A stretch of DNA of 64,000 nucleotides, from sequence record MN850576.1. The stretch is one strand, 5' to 3'. Numbering within the stretch: the first letter of the stretch is position 1; every line of letters begins with the position of its first letter. The position numbers and the translations under genes are program-made. The notes below the pieces were generated by a model, which saw only the letters and a list, made by a program, of their open reading frames with translations, did not search any database and was not told the DNA's origin. This document shows, one piece after another, positions 5,604 to 61,117 of this stretch. The DNA comes from Escherichia phage ime.

Positions 5604-5702
5604 GGTGCTAGGTGATGGAATCGAACCACCTATGTATTCAACGACTACCTCGTCTATTTTCAGGATTAAAAATCCTCGCCCTTGCCAAAGGGCTTACCTA
5701 GC
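5604..5702 (-). tRNA. aberrant tRNA-like element (Lys-TTT-like anticodon arm; about 25-nt insertion in variable region); possible pseudo-tRNA
   Basis: Perfect 7-bp acceptor GCTAGGT/ACCTAGC, D-arm GCCC-TTTGGCAA-GGGC, T-arm GGTGG-TTCGATT-CCATC, anticodon arm AGGA-TTTTTAA-TCCT; about 30 nt between anticodon and T arms; CC but no terminal A encoded. Confidence 0.4.
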
Positions 5703-8523: not shown

Positions 8524-8555
8524 ATTATTTAGTTATTTTAGTTATATTCTTTATG

Positions 8556-8636
8556 TGTCCGTATCACGGACAGTTAGTGTCCGTATTACGGGCAGATGTG
8601 TCCGCGTGACGGACAGTAGTGTCCGTATCACGGACA
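8556..8636. repeat. array of four phased 17-bp palindromes TGTCCGYRTNACGGRCA (operator- or iteron-like)
   Basis: Copies at 8556-8572, 8578-8594, 8599-8615, 8620-8636 (21-22 bp period) plus degenerate fifth copy about 8643-8662; half-sites TGTCCGT / ACGGACA. Confidence 0.8.
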
Positions 8637-8711
8637 GTTAATAGTATCCGTTCCATGGCGAACATAAAACATACGAATCCTTATAGTACAGATATTTAAG
8701 TTTTTACTGGT

Positions 8712-47201: not shown

Positions 47202-47417
47202 ATGAAGATAGAAATATTTGGTGGAGCTGACAACACTCGTGGCCTGATTTACCTTGAATTCGATGAATCATACCTGCCAGAGGTGTTAAATATGGACTCT
47301 GTTGCTGATGCTTTGGGAGTAAGTCCTAAAGATCTCTACTCTGGTGCTGAGATTGATGGTTGGGAGGAGACCATGAACATTGATTTCAGTGAAGTAGGTG
47401 ATGAACCACTGGACTGA
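47202..47417 (+). CDS. small acidic protein (family A-like N-terminus MKIEIFGG)
   Basis: 71-aa ORF after GGAGA. Confidence 0.4.
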   Translation: MKIEIFGGADNTRGLIYLEFDESYLPEVLNMDSVADALGVSPKDLYSGAEIDGWEETMNIDFSEVGDEPLD

Positions 47418-47546
47418 CACACAATTAGCTGCCAGGCTAAAGTGCTGGAAGCGCACCTATAACACATCTTTCAACTAAATTTCCTACCACCACAATCACT
47501 TACCTCCCACACATGACTGTTTGCTTGTTTAGTGAGCAGTCATGCC

Positions 47547-47574
47547 TTGACATTCTTGCCTATCCTGATAAAAT
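47547..47574 (+). promoter_or_regulatory. sigma70-like promoter (TTGACA-N16-TAAAAT) facing an ORF-free region
   Basis: -35 47547-47552, -10 47569-47574; no ORF of 60 aa or more downstream on plus strand for over 2 kb. Confidence 0.45.
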
Positions 47575-47579
47575 TAAGT

Positions 47580-47860
47580 TCTTCTCTTTTCTTTTACCGA
47601 GTAATTCGGGTTTTCTGTTCTCTTCGGTTTGAAGGGGTATGGAGATACACCTGAGTGAACAGGGTGAACAACCGAACCATTGGCTATGGCATTAGCATGG
47701 CGAAGCGGACGGGTGACGAAAGAGGGGCCGGAGGACACCAGTCACTGCCATATGGTATATGGGTGATAACCTGAAGAGTCTGAATAAGTGTTTAAGTACC
47801 AGTCAGAGGAAAAGGTGAATGGTAGCCGAAGGGGGAGGGGGGTTTCTTGTATCTTTAATT
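47580..47860 (+). ncRNA. candidate non-coding transcript (unclassified)
   Basis: Promoter-proximal ORF-free stretch with locally elevated GC and G-rich tract (GAAGGGGGAGGGGGG) followed by TTTCTTGTATCTTT. Confidence 0.2.
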
Positions 47861-48912
47861 TGTATATTATGTATACACTTGTAAACCAATCTCATCTGAA
47901 TCTGTTTACCACACAAAGCGGATAGAGACAAATATCACCTATTAAACTTGAATTATTTATAGAAAATACCACAACACCACTTAAGTCTTTGATTTTACAC
48001 ACAAATCCTACAGATATTCAACCTCCATATTTAACATACTTGTAACATATTCCATACTCTACCTGTCTGATCAATCTACCCAACCACATCCTTCATATTT
48101 TCCCTGTCTGTACCACCCCTGCCCCGCCGGGAGTCCCGTCATATCTGGCTTTCCAGTAAATAGCACACCCACAAATATCATTGCCTGAAGAGGGTTTCAT
48201 CCCATAATACATGCCTTACCTGAAGAGCGCTTCATACACCACGTAAATTTTTTAATTGACCTGCAATTTTCCCGTCATGACCCCCCCCCTGCCCCGCCGG
48301 AGAGGTTGGCTTTTCCCACACAGACCTGAAGAGTCAGCCAGAAATATCTGAACAGGTCCAGTTCTGCCTTGTCATGAGCCGTAGCGACTGGAGTGCTGCC
48401 AGGCGGACGGAATGGGAATACTTCTCATTCTTATAATAATTCTCAAATATCGAGGCAGTGAGGCAAATTAATAGGTGAGGCCGTTCACACAGTGGCACAA
48501 CATTTGCAATCTATTTTGTGAGGGTGAATGAGAATACCTATCATTGTGAGAACCTTTATCATTACGGGCAATTTAACATAATACCCATTATGCGCACCAC
48601 TGGCGATACATACAGGGATTGATACCATGAGTTACAGTTTACGCATATAACAATCATATTTCTTACTATTTGTGTGGGATATAGTTAGCAACCAATAGAT
48701 TAGATATTGACCTACAGACTTCCAACCGTCTAGACGTCTAAACGCCCACACACCAAGGGTTATACATACATTACTGAATGTAAACAGGGCCGCAAAAATG
48801 CTACCATACCAGTTTGTAAATTTTTCATGCAGCACTTGACAAAGAGGAGAAAAACTTGTCTGACATAATGTGACCTAACTGACACAACATGACACTTTTA
48901 CACACCTATTAG

Positions 48913-48984
48913 TTTACACACTGGATTGTTTACATTCCTGATTGTTCACATGCTAACCATTTACATGATTGACTGTTTACACAC
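48913..48984. repeat. iteron-like direct repeats (five TTTACA/TTCACA copies, loosely DnaA-box-like)
   Basis: GTTTACACA 48913-48921, TGTTTACAT 48927-48935, TTGTTCACA 48942-48950, ATTTACAT 48959-48966, TGTTTACACA 48975-48984; further copies near 49395-49455. Confidence 0.55.
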
Positions 48985-48993
48985 CGATAATCA

Positions 48994-49251
48994 GCCATGC
49001 CATTCGTTTGCATGACAATAATTATACATGACAATAATCGCACTGATTATAATTAGCATGACATAATATAAAAGCAGGGCAACTATTAGCAGATCTATAG
49101 TTGCCTTGCTTGTTATGTCATGATTAACTAAATACAAGGCAACTATGATCTGATTAATAGTTTGCAGACAAACTATCACGGGGGTGATGGTTACTGCTTT
49201 TATATTATGTCGCGACTCCGTCGCGCCATGCCATTCGTTTGCATAGTTGCC
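48994..49251. repeat. composite repeat: 20-bp direct repeat, 18-20 bp inverted repeat, four GGCAACTAT/ATAGTTGCC copies
   Basis: GCCATGCCATTCGTTTGCAT at 48994-49013 and 49225-49244; ATGACATAATATAAAAGCAG 49058-49077 vs its reverse complement 49194-49211; GGCAACTAT at 49078, 49138 and ATAGTTGCC at 49097, 49243. Confidence 0.7.
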
Positions 49252-49861
49252 TTATTGTTACAGATAAAATAATTGTATTGTTAATTATTTCTTATCTTTC
49301 TATTAGTCATCTAATGATTTCAGTTAATATAGTAACGTACAGTAAACATTAGACGACTAAAGATTTCTCTGCTTATGGTAACCTAACGTGACAATTCCAG
49401 ACTGTTTACGAAAAATGTTGACACCTGGGCCGATTTATGTTATGCAGTTTACACGAATAATTATTTTATGCAGGTATTGACTATTCCGTTATTCTATGGT
49501 TGGAATAAATGCTTAGCAGGCTATAGAATGGCGAGCGTACGTAAATTCTGAGATCTGGCGGCTATAGTTATACTCGATTTTTCACGTAGAAAACGCTTTT
49601 GTAGCTATGTAAGTGTATGACTTATAAAGATTTTTAGTTGTTGACAAGATATTGGAGATGTGCATCAGATTAAATTTTGTGCAATAGCTACATTACGTGC
49701 ACTTTTGGAAGAAAAAACGTGTAAAAATGGCCCTGCTACCACACAATGAAAGATTATGCAATAGTTATTTTATATGTATATTTGTACAGTGTGTGGGATT
49801 AATGGCTAGTCAATTATTCCACTTGCCAGGTAGGGCCGTTTATGGTAGGAGAAGAGCAGAC

Positions 49862-49886
49862 AAAAAGAAAGGGGCCTTTAAGCCCC
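49862..49886 (-). terminator. rho-independent terminator (minus strand)
   Basis: On minus strand GGGGC...GCCCC hairpin followed by TTTCTTTTTG; downstream of gene 49907-50326. Confidence 0.55.
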
Positions 49887-49906
49887 TTGATAATTCAGTT
49901 AAGAAA

Positions 49907-51089: not shown

Positions 51090-51362
51090 TTACTTGCGGC
51101 GGCAGAATTCAAGCGTTTTTAATTGATAATCTTCCTCAGCCTGGAGTACTACCGCCTCGATCATTTCGTTGGCATTGTTAAAGCCATAACCTTTAGCGAA
51201 CTCATCCGCGCCACCTTCGTGATCATGTTCTGCGTTCATCGCTTCCACAAAATGGAATTCCAAATTGTTGAGGTAGGGGCTTGATGTGCCGTCTTCTTTT
51301 TCGATGAGATCCCAAATAGCATTAAAACGTGATTCGACTTCTTGATTAATCCAGCTTGACAT
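51090..51362 (-). CDS. hypothetical acidic protein
   Basis: 90-aa ORF; SD GGAGAGAGG; GC hairpin in leader. Confidence 0.45.
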   Translation of the reverse strand: MSSWINQEVESRFNAIWDLIEKEDGTSSPYLNNLEFHFVEAMNAEHDHEGGADEFAKGYGFNNANEMIEAVVLQAEEDYQLKTLEFCRRK

Positions 51363-51573
51363 AGTGTTTTCCTCTCTCCTGGTTATTGTGTGGGCACTTT
51401 TGCCCCTTCAAGATAAATGTTACCCCACCCCATGGCAGATGTCAACGGTTTTTATAGTTCTTATATGACAGGCAGGCCCGGTGATTGTCTCCACCCGTCG
51501 CCAGGTGCCTGCCGTGAAACAAGTATAACAAAAAACAGGACCATTGCAAGCCCTGTTTTGTAGTTTATAAGGA

Positions 51574-51765
51574 TTATATTTTTTCGCCTATGTAGTCCGG
51601 TCGGTTTTTCTCTGTCATGCGCTTGAGCAATTCTTGCATGTTGCTTATGGCTTGCAGTGTATCCCCTTCCAGACTTGAATCAACATAATCAGGATCGTCT
51701 ATAACCTTTCTATGATTATGATAACGCAGTACCGCCAATACCTTTCTAACTTGTTCGATATTCAT
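51574..51765 (-). CDS. hypothetical protein
   Basis: 63-aa ORF. Confidence 0.35.
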   Translation of the reverse strand: MNIEQVRKVLAVLRYHNHRKVIDDPDYVDSSLEGDTLQAISNMQELLKRMTEKNRPDYIGEKI

Positions 51766-53389: not shown

Positions 53390-53445
53390 GATGATTTGCC
53401 TCTCTTTATTTTCATAATTGGGGGGCCTTTTCGGCCCCGCCAGGT

Positions 53446-59353: not shown

Positions 59354-59629
59354 TTATTTTTTATTAAACCAGTGGTTGATCTGTCCTTTTGTCAGGGCGC
59401 AACGATTAAGCTGTTGCCGGGTATAGCTCTGACCGCGACGGAATTTATAAAGGCCTTGCCCGTTGTTGATGGTTACGTCCACCTGGCAAACCATTTGATC
59501 GGTGACCACCTGGCGAGTGTTGCGACGTACTTTGATCCCGTATGCGTTCATAAATTTATCCTCTTTACTGGTTAGTGCGGTGTTGTTCACCTTGTAGGGT
59601 AATAATACCATGATTAACCTTGTTGTCAA
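59354..59629 (-). CDS. hypothetical protein
   Basis: 91-aa ORF. Confidence 0.4.
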   Translation of the reverse strand: MTTRLIMVLLPYKVNNTALTSKEDKFMNAYGIKVRRNTRQVVTDQMVCQVDVTINNGQGLYKFRRGQSYTRQQLNRCALTKGQINHWFNKK

Positions 59630-60304
59630 CGATTATTTTAAATTATTTTTATGATAGAATCCACCTGCCGCCCCCGCCAGGTTAACCACCATTTTTTCGT
59701 ACTCTTCTTTATGTTCCCGCGCTTCTGTATCATTAATCACTACATTTCCCAGGTGAGTAGCATTACCTTTCATTTTTGTACCTCCTCTTCAATTGTTTAC
59801 CCTACAGCATGGGCCTACCAGGTTTGCAAGATTTCACCCTCTCCCACCTGGTCAGTTAGGTCCTGCCAGGCTGGCCCCGCCAGGTTGCAACGGTTAGCGC
59901 ATCAGGTTAGAAAAATTTTTTGAAAAGGTGTTGACAGCGGCCCCGCCAGGGGGCACAATATACCTATCGAAAGGACGGCAGGCACCGGTGACGGTGGAGA
60001 CAACCACCGGGGATGGGCGCTGCATAAAATGAGAACGGTTATCATTATCATTTAAAAATTTATGCAAAAAATCCTTGCCTTCTTTGTCCTGTGTGATACT
60101 ATAATAACAAGCCGGGGCAACAGGGGCCGGGAGACAATCACCGGGCCTGCCCGTTATTCTGCAAACGAGAATGATTATCATTCAAAATTCTAAATGAGAA
60201 CTCCTCGCATTTAATAAATTTAATTAGCATGCTAATTACCCTCCGTAACAATTTCCTATAAAACAGTATCCCATAAAATATTCCCATATAGAAATTTTAA
60301 AAAT

Positions 60305-60486
60305 CCATTTCTGAAAACGAAAAATCGATTTCGTCCCCAAAAATTTCAGGTCGAGAGCTGGAACGATTTCCAGAAAATCCGATTCAGAAAACGAAAAACA
60401 GATCGAGTACTTGGAAATTTATCGAGAAAAATTTTCAGAAAATTCAATCTTTGAAACGAAAAACAGATCGAGTACTTGGAAAGCTG
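60305..60486. repeat. tandem direct repeats, about 66-bp period, 2.5 copies
   Basis: AAACGAAAAACAGATCGAGTACTTGGAAA at 60388-60417 and 60454-60483 nearly identical; degenerate copy at 60314-60345; TTCAGAAAA sub-motif recurs. Confidence 0.75.
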
Positions 60487-60787
60487 TACCGCAACTTCAA
60501 GATAGTGGCTGGATTATTGCCATAAAAGGCCAAGGGCGAGTGGGAAAGTTCTGGTAGAAGGATGTGAGCATGTGTGGGAAAATCTATAATGGTGGCCTGG
60601 AATATGGTGCAAACGATAGGATGAGTTATTCAGCTTGTCGCGCCTACTCTGAAAAATCCATTTTAGTTTTCGATCCATTTTCTGATTTTCTAAGAATTTT
60701 AAAATATCCAGCCCGGTGAAATATCAAAAGGAGGAAATCCATTTTAGAAATCCCCCTTATACTTGATATGCCAGGAATTTTCAAGTA

Positions 60788-61117
60788 TCAGTTGTCTTTG
60801 TTTTTAGGTTTGTACATGCGCAGAGGTATGGTCTTTGTAACATTCCATTTCCTCAACCCTTCCCAGCTCCAGTTGTGGGCGTGGTATCCGGTTATGCATG
60901 CACTACTGGAGTGATCGTAAGCATAAGAGAACGCTAAGCGCACCAGGTGGGGCCAGTCCTTCCATGGTTGTGGACCGTAAGCTTTTCTCCAACACCGACA
61001 CAAACTAAATGTCTCAAGGATAGGAAGGATAACAAACCCATACACTGTCACCAAAATAGTCAGTGCAATGATTGTCAGGAACACATACCCTGCAGTTGAA
61101 ATGATGATCTCTGTCAT
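60788..61117 (-). CDS. membrane protein
   Basis: N-terminal IIISTAGYVFLTIIALTILVTVYGFVILPI hydrophobic segment. Confidence 0.4.
   Translation of the reverse strand: MTEIIISTAGYVFLTIIALTILVTVYGFVILPILETFSLCRCWRKAYGPQPWKDWPHLVRLAFSYAYDHSSSACITGYHAHNWSWEGLRKWNVTKTIPLRMYKPKNKDN

Follow-up and report, generated by a model that had tools for sequence, protein, structure and literature searches.

A conserved, essentially non-coding locus of rV5-like phages carrying promoter-led structured RNAs, palindromic boxes and a three-unit repeat array: a candidate replication-control region

The T4 origins oriE and oriF and the primary origin of T7 are promoter-driven, transcript-primed phage origins. In each, one or two promoters for host or phage polymerase direct transcription into a segment that is rich in AT and unwinds easily; the origin lies among the early or middle genes of a large virulent phage that supplies its own replisome. 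No dedicated DnaA-type boxes are needed by origins of this type, and oriE carries short iterons as well. Plasmid and lambdoid iteron origins place several direct repeats beside an AT-rich stretch, with palindromes nearby. In ColE1 RNA II/RNA I and lambda oop, the transcript begins with a GC-rich stem-loop and heads towards AT-rich DNA, while in HK022 put and lambda nut two hairpins lie side by side immediately 3' of early promoters, with several copies occurring in either orientation. Phage therapy and phage typing commonly make use of rV5-like, phi92/phAPEC8-like, PVP-SE1-like and CR3-like phages. To our knowledge, no origin is known for the Vequintavirinae or Stephanstirmvirinae. Literature searches turned up neither a transcriptome nor a mapped origin for any of these phages. 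In rV5 no origin has been mapped; its genome paper sought one and reported only skew changes that follow transcription (PMC3606486).

The locus described here lies in a window of 64,000 nt (the whole stretch analysed, from sequence record MN850576.1), which represents an rV5-like Vequintavirus with 97% identity to Vequintavirus genomes. It resembles the T4 and T7 origins in the features listed above; unlike them, its predicted promoters oppose the surrounding genes, its transcript would begin with a conserved structured element that is also found elsewhere in the genome, and its repeats, whose role in an origin is putative, are long, composite and 63-78 bp apart. With iteron origins it shares direct repeats beside AT-rich DNA and palindromes that are putative protein-binding sites, but it has no adjacent initiator gene or DnaA boxes, only three repeats, and a spacing other than the usual ~22 bp. 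The ColE1 RNA I geometry is echoed in most genera by a weak site resembling a convergent promoter (TTGAAT-18-CAGAAT), ~95 nt downstream, whose spacer contains a box; this site agrees with the consensus at only 8 of 12 positions, and its resemblance to a promoter may stem from the box sequence alone. Sequence similarity to ColE1 or oop is absent, and a lytic phage has no obvious need of copy-number control. The likeness to put and nut is one of architecture, and genes co-oriented with the RNA units at the locus are absent downstream.

A conserved locus in the early region

Some general features of the locus are as follows.

59633-59773, minus strand: small ORF of 46 aa preceded by a strong ribosome-binding site (GAGGAGG); it borders the non-coding locus on the left
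60483-60650, no strand assigned: variable spacer, 74-85% identity, with 1-2-nt indels and no conserved reading frame
60756-60808, plus strand: inverted repeat (arms 60756-60766 and 60781-60791), then a T-rich tail on the plus strand only; found by repeat search

All neighbouring genes are early genes on the minus strand. Across ten rV5-like genomes, positions 59925-60250, 60275-60460 and 60650-60700 are 93-99.6% conserved and gap-free, compared with 82-92% for the flanking genes, and the locus is the most conserved non-coding DNA in the otherwise fast-evolving early region of these phages. Positions 59800-59865, just upstream of an invariant block, are variable and deleted in some genomes, and single-nucleotide indels are tolerated over 60475-60650. 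We regard it as very probable that the stretch is a functional, essentially non-coding locus kept across the Vequintavirinae, with its promoter, RNA and box part also present in Phapecoctavirus (Stephanstirmvirinae). With equally high confidence, its plus strand holds two promoter-led structured RNAs, palindromic boxes, an AT-rich segment with three repeats, a spacer, short repeats, and a hairpin with a T-tract. The initial annotation overlooked the best-conserved of these features, namely the two promoter-driven structured RNA elements and the palindromic boxes at 59931-60211.

That annotation described 59640-60790 as free of ORFs, which holds for conserved ORFs between ~59,800 and 60,787; the 46-aa ORF at the left border may be a real small gene, and carries a 34-nt deletion in the window relative to most relatives. 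GenBank records do annotate ORFs at the locus, as would be expected if it held small protein genes like rV5 ORF197-199. The CDS calls in relatives are inconsistent, however, ranging from none to seven, reading frames across the locus are interrupted by indels among rV5-like genomes, and the 95-aa ORF at 59894-60181 on the minus strand lies exactly over both RNA units and has no ribosome-binding site. We rejected the coding interpretation as extremely unlikely. ORFs of the rV5 gp193/ORF198 type that overlie the RNA elements are probably not genes, a correction to database annotation. The flanking proteins offer no functional clue: they have no Pfam domains, fall into PHROGs of unknown function and differ between genera. 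On the right, the inverted repeat and T-tract overlap the stop codon of the minus-strand gene at 60788-61117 and may mark the end of a plus-strand transcription unit at ~60.8 kb. A terminator scan did not call this structure because its stem is AT-rich.

A family of promoter-proximal structured RNAs

Three copies of a structured RNA element, designated units A, B and C, were found in the window.

59931-59959, plus strand: predicted promoter of unit A, TTGACA-17-CACAAT; 10/12 consensus matches, conserved in rV5-like genomes
59966-60040, plus strand: RNA unit A, a paralogue of B; outer stem GCAGGC/GCGCUGC, inner stem, and apical loop with GAGACAAC
60075-60105, plus strand: predicted promoter of unit B, TTGCCT-16-TACTAT, with TG extension and an overlapping TATAAT; read from the sequence
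60108-60176, plus strand: RNA unit B (ncRNA2 in other genera); P1 CGGGGCA/UGCCCG, P2 CCGG/CCGG with loop GAGACAAUCA, H1 AUUCU/AGAAU
51549-51522, minus strand: predicted promoter of unit C, TTGCAA-16-TATACT, in or after a terminator hairpin
51448-51516, minus strand: RNA unit C, outside the studied region; P1 GGCAGGC/GCCUGCC and an exact GGAGACAATCACCGG

At the locus the element occurs as two tandem plus-strand copies, each directly behind its own predicted sigma-70-type promoter (~5-10 nt from promoter to structured element) and oriented against the surrounding early genes. It is made up of an outer stem P1, an inner stem whose loop, GAGACAAYCA, is conserved, and a further hairpin, H1. Unit A has a minimum free energy of -24.1 kcal/mol (z = -3.5) and was recovered by nhmmer (E = 5e-5) and by a covariance model (21.6 bits, E = 0.009). 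Unit B scored 63.3 bits with the covariance model and showed 72-88% blastn identity to distant genera; together with the first box behind it, it is the only part of the locus with DNA similarity to other genera. The hexamers of its promoter are conserved in position in five other genera, where the spacers have diverged. Unit C (nhmmer E = 2e-8; z = -2.4; 25.6 bits) stands alone, without repeats, 8.6 kb from the locus, and second copies orthologous to it occur in Mydovirus-like contigs. A promoter is predicted 5' of every copy, including A, B, C, their orthologues in six genera and those in metagenomic contigs, in both genomic orientations.

The same fold topology was obtained for 15/15 variants of the element. 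In a covariance-model alignment of 37 distinct members, which was fitted to that same model, 9/11 pairs in two helices showed a compensatory change, as against 3.9 in shuffles (0/500 shuffles reached 9), and 79.6% of paired cells were complementary, as against 38-58% with the partners slid. The significance is confined to this alignment: in a ten-sequence MAFFT alignment, P1 was 87.5% paired and covariation was no better than in shuffles. RNAalifold gave no consensus fold on a plain MAFFT alignment, because the 5' halves were misaligned. H1 is formed from different sequences in different lineages, and the loop GAGACAAUCACC is nearly invariant from E. coli phages through unrelated metagenomic contigs. 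An attempt to assign the strand by wobble pairs failed; with 35 G.U cells barely exceeding 29 A.C cells in the model alignment, the transcribed strand is assigned by the predicted promoters only. A P22-boxB-like GACAA pentaloop was also considered and dropped, as most lineages can form only a CAA triloop and GAP31 and Mydovirus have ACAAA.

At gathering thresholds, Rfam returned only tRNAs in the window; it gave nothing credible in 59400-61000 up to E = 5, and four related loci produced no hit up to E = 1. The element is a previously undescribed RNA family, without an Rfam match, that reaches unclassified metagenomic phages. Promoter, RNA, boxes and three repeats follow one another in this order in Seuna-, Mydo-, Certre- and Henunavirus too, the layout having been found in GAP31, SSE121, Mydo, CR3, F2M1E and Hena1. 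Phapecoctavirus (phiWec186, SKA64) has promoter, RNA and boxes in common, with an unrelated repeat family. Metagenomic contigs have the RNA element as well, and in unrelated ones it is present without repeats; this solitary occurrence, like that of unit C, indicates that the RNA has a function independent of the repeat array. In sister genera, a CpxR-consensus-like repeat lies at the RNA promoter.

The main rival to a role in replication, discussed below, is that A, B and C are free-standing regulatory small-RNA genes, giving early trans-acting or cis-antisense RNAs with no part in replication, which is possible if somewhat doubtful. Small antisense-oriented RNAs within early operons are known, lambda oop being one example. 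The loop GAGACAAUCACC would then contact a conserved host or phage RNA or protein, and the boxes would act as operators or roadblocks that set the 3' ends or level of the RNA, with the repeats as unrelated regulator sites; we hold these details with the same reserve. A multi-copy family with its own predicted promoter at each copy in both orientations, a nearly invariant loop, a covarying structure, and boxes that accompany the element at a second locus in Mydovirus-like contigs are consistent with such genes. On the other side, no intrinsic terminator (GC-rich hairpin plus U-tract) follows the element, the hairpins there being AU-rich and the U-tract missing, so that a discrete small RNA cannot be taken for granted. 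Within the window, a search for a site complementary to the loop found none, the only other exact copy being that in paralogue C, and the linkage of A and B to the repeat array, in the same order and orientation in five genera, would be left unexplained. The hairpin at the 5' side of ncRNA1 was weighed as a minus-strand terminator, a weak reading since several genera lack the U-tract.

The closeness of the element to the predicted transcription start (a few nucleotides in all copies), its two adjacent hairpins, and its several copies behind early promoters in both orientations with no terminator directly after them would also suit a promoter-proximal leader RNA that modifies polymerase in the manner of lambda nut or HK022 put. 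Polymerases starting at A and B would then pass terminators, and the long antisense transcript covering the upstream early genes of the minus strand would shut these genes off; unit C would do likewise, in the sense direction, for its downstream genes. We consider this unlikely in each of its parts, since no plus-strand gene lies downstream of A or B in any genus, the hairpin and T-tract at 60756-60808 would stop plus-strand transcripts short of the upstream genes, and the Rfam search was empty.

Boxes, repeat array and a candidate origin

Behind the RNA units lie palindromic boxes and, further downstream, an array of three direct repeats; none has an assigned strand.

60028-60052: box A, AATGAGAACGGTTATCATTATCATT; 60031-60049 (read on the minus strand) matches 16/19 positions of the Fur-box consensus
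60164-60182: box B1, AACGAGAATGATTATCATT
60193-60211: box B2, AATGAGAACTCCTCGCATT
60287-60343: tandem unit 1, degenerate, 61% identity to the reference; AAATCCATTTC...GAAAACGAAAAATCGATTTCGTCC
60361-60417: tandem unit 2, the reference copy; AAAATCCGATTCAGAAAACGAAAAACAGATCGAGTAC (unit core), 93-98% conserved, gapless
60426-60482: tandem unit 3, 82% identity to the reference

The boxes, with the consensus ATGAGAA-N3-5-TTCTCAT, lie just 3' of units A and B; the family consensus is AATGAGAAT-N-ATTCTCATT and the box sequence AATGAGAATGATTCTCATT. Other genera have 1-5 copies at the equivalent position. The half-sites vary independently, without compensation, and the boxes therefore look like DNA sites for a putative dimeric protein. 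Like Fur boxes, they are 19-bp AT-rich palindromes, and three sites in the window match the 19-bp Fur consensus GATAATGATAATCATTATC at 16, 15 and 14 of 19 positions; unlike Fur sites, the phage family consensus has G in place of T in each half (GAGAAT, not GATAAT).

Tandem repeats had been noted in the initial annotation, and a repeat search confirmed three 57-nt direct repeats with start-to-start distances of 74 and 65 nt. The 30-bp repeated unit reported there corresponds to the last ~30 nt of copies 2 and 3, which are identical. Tandem Repeats Finder, which had been proposed as a check, missed the array and reported only a 12-nt period at 60415-60442. The array is nearly invariant in ten genomes, and three-unit arrays occur in four other genera, giving three units per genome, 63-78 bp apart, in all five Vequintavirinae genera examined. 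The best-conserved part of a unit is the motif GATCGAG(A/T)AC with a 21-bp CGATC spacing, and units often have two CGATC boxes 21 bp apart; the units of Hena1 lack GATC. The GC content is 27-37% at 60150-60450, and the AT skew is +0.2 to +0.33 over 60200-60550, a purine skew of the non-template strand that gives an indirect hint of a persistent RNA-DNA hybrid. The comparison with iterons made initially holds for three composite direct repeats in AT-rich DNA adjoining short repeat families, but the 63-78-bp spacing is atypical. The units are not helically phased 17-22-bp repeats; only the inner CGATC boxes, at 20-21 bp, approach that spacing.

That the array is not a CRISPR array, as had been proposed, is supported on several counts. 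The intervals between the 30-nt cores are homologous, belonging to 57-nt units of 61-82% identity, exactly three homologous units recur in four other genera, and the array as a whole shows 92-99.6% conservation over 10 genomes, where CRISPR spacers would be expected to vary. No match to the host was found in 5,426 E. coli genomes, and the neighbouring genes are phage ORFans. Other anti-defence RNA repeats, such as a mini-CRISPR, a solitary repeat or a pseudo-ToxI mimic, were suggested by the pseudo-ToxI repeats of the relative phiTE (PMC3475682). The supposed spacers here are mutually homologous and invariant between genomes, the phiTE locus lies elsewhere (tRNA-Tyr to phiTE_203, near the terminase), and the units, at 57-75 nt rather than 36, are unrelated; both the CRISPR and pseudo-ToxI interpretations were rejected, and anti-defence repeats are extremely unlikely. 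Host mimicry or a plasmid origin was likewise dropped, no similarity being found in E. coli genomes, plasmids (bar one plasmid entry that is in fact a phage genome) or 185,579 bacterial species genomes.

Each repeat unit, when read on the minus strand, forms a weak hairpin followed by a U-tract of U4-U7 (for example at 60344-60307 in the window and 1768-1753 in GAP31), so the three repeats might form a triple minus-strand terminator or insulator, halting early-gene transcripts that read through from 61 kb before they meet the convergent A and B promoters. This is improbable: the stems are AT-rich and short, a lenient scan accepts just one unit in each genome, and what is conserved is GATCGAG(A/T)AC and the CGATC spacing, not hairpin strength. 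A role in packaging, as a pac site or as a binding site for the terminase whose repeats contain GATC like those of P1 pac, is very unlikely. The repeated boxes of the units do contain GATC, and PVP-SE1 and rV5-like genomes are reported to be terminally redundant and permuted. By synteny with phiTE, however, the terminase lies beyond the tRNA cluster (tRNAs at 5.3-6.2 kb of the window), >50 kb away; several deposited genomes are linearised at ~48.6-48.9 kb, in another non-coding region; and GATC is missing from the Hena1 units.

Our own tentative reading, held with somewhat less than even confidence, is that the locus is a transcription-fed, iteron-type origin or a cis-acting replication-control region. 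Host RNA polymerase would start at the two early promoters and produce a transcript with the structured element as its leader; this transcript would cross the operator boxes into the AT-rich, purine-skewed repeat array and there open or prime the DNA, through an R-loop or transcriptional activation, as in T4 oriE/oriF and the T7 primary origin. Two proteins would act as the gate, one bound to the boxes and the other to the three units with GATCGAG. The anatomy is origin-like in that three direct repeats adjoin an AT-rich segment, and the predicted promoters at 59931 and 60075 point towards AT-rich 60150-60480; further predicted promoters lie directly before the repeats and point into the array in GAP31 (Seunavirus) and Mydovirus. 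Against this stand the lack of a DnaA box (TTATCCACA, <=1 mismatch) in 59600-60800, of a recognisable initiator or DNA-binding gene among the adjacent genes, and of a GC-skew inflection at the locus. A larger non-coding region at 47.4-49.9 kb carries the same boxes and is an equally good origin candidate.

It is a more doubtful proposition that rV5-like phages and their large virulent relatives use the locus as a new type of RNA-controlled origin or as a master region of early control. We are similarly hesitant about its proposed composition from a promoter-proximal, widely distributed RNA, whose transcript would run into the three-unit iteron array to license or prime the synthesis of DNA, and a protein gating this step through Fur-box-like palindromes. 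If the origin reading is true, the locus gives an origin that can be put to the test, a way into the initiation of replication in the Vequintavirinae and Stephanstirmvirinae, and a possible link from host signals to replication through the Fur-like boxes and, in sister genera, the CpxR-consensus-like repeat.

Short motifs and other repeats

At least five repeat families occur within a 600-bp stretch of the locus. The remaining features, beyond the boxes and the array, are as follows.

59865-59912, plus strand: invariant block CCAGGCTGGCCCCGCCAGGTTGCAACGGTTAGCGCATCAGGTTAGAA, with the second motif copy; kept in 10/10 genomes
60221-60238, no strand assigned: perfect 18-bp palindrome TAATTAGCATGCTAATTA; single changes only among rV5-like genomes
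60654-60747, no strand assigned: near-invariant short-repeat block; AAATCCATTTTAG at 60654 and 60735, GATCCATTTTCT at 60672, AAATATC(A) at 60702 and 60719

The initial annotation had taken GCCCCGCCAGG as a unifying motif. Its copies exist, although the position given as 59661 was off by 10 nt and the others by 1-3 nt: exact copies of CCCCGCCAGG lie at 59672, 59875, 59941 and 53435, three of them in the locus, and 8 sites with <=1 mismatch were found as against 1.3 expected (8 reached in 0/100 shuffles). The contexts are unrelated. The first copy (59671-59681) lies inside the 46-aa ORF and is changed in most rV5-like genomes; the second (59874-59884), in the invariant block, is the only one invariant in 10/10; and the third (59940-59950) lies in the spacer of the unit A promoter and is kept in 8/10. 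The motif was therefore dropped as a functional unit. The invariant block itself may be what is left, in diverged form, of the ncRNA1 3' half known from other genera, to which it aligns collinearly in 4/5 genera, none of the alignments being individually significant.

The recurring short box of the initial annotation (ATCCATTT) was borne out, with AAATCCATTT(T/C) boxes at 60301, 60654 and 60735 and GATCCATTTT at 60672. The short repeats past the spacer consist of ATCCATTTT and AAATATC, and analogous AAACCATTTCG and AAATATCA repeats are present in Seuna-, Certre- and Phapecoctavirus.

A conserved non-coding kilobase

The kilobase at ~59,800-60,790 is a conserved non-coding locus that combines promoter-proximal structured RNA elements with palindromic boxes of protein-binding type and three repeats arrayed in AT-rich sequence. 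This combination of parts is new, as is the RNA family, and both locus and family are absent from Rfam and from the searched literature; origin-like regions rich in repeats are already known as a kind, as are leader and small RNAs of phages. More than 100 Vequintavirus (rV5-like) genomes match the surrounding 1.9 kb at 93-97% identity. The annotated neighbours, without exception small hypothetical genes of the minus strand, form the set described as the early-gene cluster of rV5 (PMC3606486); their proteins differ from genus to genus and offer no hint of function. In an alignment of ten rV5-like genomes, segments 59925-60250, 60275-60460 and 60650-60700 are 93-99.6% identical and free of gaps, flanking protein genes are 82-92% identical, and the variable segments 59800-59870 and 60475-60650 carry indels not divisible by three. 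This pattern of sequence conservation speaks for a locus that is functional and non-coding.

The initial annotation described the region as free of ORFs, which holds for ~59,800-60,787 and may fail at 59633-59773(-), where a 46-aa ORF with a strong ribosome-binding site may be a real gene; its 3' part is displaced by an indel of 34 nt that sets it apart from most relatives. GenBank records call between zero and seven ORFs in this kilobase. Among them, a 95-aa ORF at 59894-60181(-) (rV5 gp193/ORF198, Gotham, CarlMeissner and others) exactly overlaps RNA units A and B, lacks a ribosome-binding site and is probably an annotation artefact.

Gene orientation switches strand at ~9-10 kb and ~47-49 kb, and GC skew tracks these switches and is unremarkable at 60 kb. 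At 8553-8638, by the divergent switch at ~9-10 kb, the 21-bp sequence GTGTCCGTATCACGGACAGTA, itself an inverted repeat, occurs four times in tandem and resembles an operator array flanked by divergent promoters.

Structured RNA units A, B and C

The main feature of the locus, overlooked in the initial annotation, is a pair of paralogous segments (units A and B). A third member, unit C, was located at 51.5 kb through an exact 15-mer, GGAGACAATCACCGG.

Units and predicted promoters
59931-60062, plus strand: unit A, with a sigma-70-type promoter TTGACA-17-CACAAT
60075-60200, plus strand: unit B, with a sigma-70-type promoter TTGCCT-16-TACTAT and a TG extension, read from sequence
51448-51549, minus strand: unit C with its own promoter, between genes 51574-51765(-) and 51090-51362(-)

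Behind each promoter of units A and B is a GC-rich stem-loop followed by an AT-rich palindrome. The unit C promoter immediately precedes its element, in or after a terminator hairpin.

The predicted fold has the same topology in 15 of 15 variants tested. An outer stem, P1, begins near the predicted 5' end and is followed by an internal loop and an inner stem displaying GAGACAAYCA; a second hairpin, H1, lies directly 3' of P1 and reads AUUCU/AGAAU, GUUAUU/AAUAAC, GCUAU/AUAGC or GCAUGU/ACAUGC according to lineage. A covariance model of P1 and H1 scored units B, C and A at 63.3, 25.6 and 21.6 bits, respectively. In an alignment of 37 distinct sequences, itself fitted to the covariance model, 79.6% of cells were paired versus 38-58% with partners slid, and 9 of 11 pairs displayed compensatory change, a level reached by none of 500 shuffles. 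Plain MAFFT/RNAalifold returned no fold for the element, and a covariation test on ten sequences was not significant. Wobble counts did not fix the RNA strand, which was assigned from the promoters and from the flipping of the element jointly with its promoter. The dinucleotide after CACCGG(G) (60145-60149 and orthologues) has undergone repeated independent CC/GG flips within rV5-like phages and within Certrevirus, with no compensating 5'-strand change, and the inner stem is thereby shortened or lengthened.

A metagenome scan recovered more distant members of the family. Two kinds of contig carrying them (L040; L041/L045) resemble no deposited phage at the DNA level; L040 has two copies (465-531 and 2766-2838), and of the two kinds one is freshwater, its member adjoining an anti-restriction gene, and the other is 215 kb. 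The family thus extends beyond Vequintavirinae and Stephanstirmvirinae. These distant members, together with the solitary copy C, favor the main alternative to a role in replication or cis-control, in which A, B and C would function as independent regulatory RNAs and the repeats would be regulator sites of no relation to them; we consider this possible but doubtful. The element has no Rfam match and no intrinsic terminator behind it, and may be a 5' leader and not a discrete small RNA. A put/nut-like leader driving antisense shut-off is a lesser alternative.

A plan common to related genera

Sensitive blastn found the region's only DNA similarity to other genera and to another subfamily in unit B (~60114-60230), with 72-88% identity to Seunavirus, Mydovirus, Certrevirus, Henunavirus and Phapecoctavirus, in most of whose records it is unannotated. 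Related loci, all on the strand opposite to neighbouring genes, follow a common plan.

Order of parts in related loci
1. Small ORF, optional
2. Promoter P1, then ncRNA1
3. GTAAA-N5-GTAAA direct repeat
4. Promoter P2, then ncRNA2 (the unit B equivalent)
5. Palindromic boxes, one to five
6. Third promoter, often
7. Three ~65-78-bp repeat units in four Vequintavirinae genera; an unrelated repeat family in Phapecoctavirus
8. More short repeats

Promoter hexamers are positionally conserved, whereas spacers diverge. Upstream of ncRNA2 in all non-rV5 genera, ncRNA1 (1305-1415 of locus L004, and orthologues) is a conserved, promoter-driven RNA candidate, GCCACCCCACGGCGAAAAGGCGGGGCUAAC...GGAAGGUGGAUCGCCGGUAG, with one compensatory pair (A-U to G-C, split 9 to 6) and no Rfam match. 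Its position is occupied by unit A in rV5-like phages, where most of ncRNA1 is replaced; an invariant block at 59865-59912 is collinear with its 3' half, in an alignment that is not significant.

The GTAAA-N5-GTAAA repeat lies 4-5 nt upstream of the ncRNA2 promoter -35 in Seuna-, Mydo-, Certre- and Phapecoctavirus loci (L003-L020, L031-L047; for example L004 1419-1433, L005 1418-1432 and L018 1429-1443), is degenerate in Hena1 and is absent from the rV5-like window. It is identical to the CpxR consensus, and through it the RNA may be tied to the envelope-stress response of the host.

In Mydovirus-like contigs the unit C counterpart and ncRNA2 are ~7.3 kb apart on opposite strands. Boxes accompany the RNA element at both loci there, whereas unit C in the window has none behind it.

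Boxes, repeats and possible function

The palindromic boxes (consensus AATGAGAAT-N-ATTCTCATT) cluster at 60028-60211 and 48411-48563. Half-sites vary independently and without compensation, which suggests DNA sites bound by a dimeric protein and not RNA hairpins. One box matches the Fur consensus at 16/19 positions (0.03 such sites expected), but the family consensus departs from Fur sites at one and the same position of each half.

The short motif CCCCGCCAGG matches exactly at 59672, 59875, 59941 and 53435 and is over-represented in the window (8 sites at ≤1 mismatch versus 1.3 expected); positions in the initial annotation were correct to within 1-10 nt. AAATCCATTT(T/C) occurs at 60301, 60654 and 60735, with a variant at 60672. 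Among the three GCCCCGCCAGG copies of the locus in ten rV5-like genomes, only copy 2, inside the block at 59865-59912, is invariant; copy 1 is altered in most, and copy 3, within a promoter spacer, varies in two. At 53435, the motif copy makes up one arm of a hairpin resembling a terminator. Since copies differ in invariance and context, the motif is not one functional element.

The tandem repeats reported initially proved to be three 57-nt direct repeats (60287, 60361 and 60426; spacing 74 and 65 nt), found by direct-repeat search and not detected by TRF. Copies 2 and 3 share 82% identity overall and do not differ over the last ~30 nt. The number of units is exactly three, at 63-78 bp spacing, in all Vequintavirinae genera examined, and the units have a homologous core AAAAT(A/C)CGAT(C/T)T...GAAAA..(C)GATCGAG(A/T)(A/C)C; many units carry two CGATC boxes 21 bp apart, and Hena1 lacks GATC. 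The initial annotation likened the repeats to iterons more than to a CRISPR array, and a CRISPR array this is not: the 'spacers' are homologous and invariant, and cas genes and host repeats are absent. The segment is 27-37% GC and A-rich on the plus strand, and the locus has no DnaA box. Read on the minus strand, the units form a weak hairpin with a U-tract; a minus-strand insulator is another lesser alternative.

T4 oriE/oriF and the T7 primary origin are models for a transcription-fed origin. By anatomy and this analogy, we tentatively propose that the locus could be such an origin or a cis-control region: its predicted early promoters point into AT-rich, purine-skewed sequence, an iteron-like array that includes many families of repeats. 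None of these phages has a known origin (PMC3606486). A pac site is a lesser reading and probably incorrect: by phiTE synteny the terminase is >50 kb distant, on the far side of the tRNA cluster (5.3-6.2 kb), and several rV5-like genomes were deposited with their linearisation point in the other non-coding region, at ~48.6-48.9 kb of the window. The phiTE pseudo-ToxI locus, which is near tRNAs and terminase, was ruled out as a counterpart, as was derivation of the locus from a host, plasmid or prophage.

That second, larger non-coding region (47400-49900) may, given the linearisation points, be a terminal/packaging region or an alternative origin. It has its own repeat families.

Repeats and boxes at 47400-49900
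48994 and 49225: exact 20-mer GCCATGCCATTCGTTTGCAT
49060-49260: GGCAACTAT inverted repeats
48113 and 48283: CCACCCCTGCCCCGCCGG
48411-48563: four boxes of the ATGAGAA..TTCTCAT family

Within the seven-tRNA cluster, a 99-nt tRNA-like gene at 5604-5702(-) scores just 35.5 bits in Rfam and is assigned a four-base anticodon (atcc) by ARAGORN; it may be an intron-containing, frameshift-suppressor-like or degenerate tRNA.
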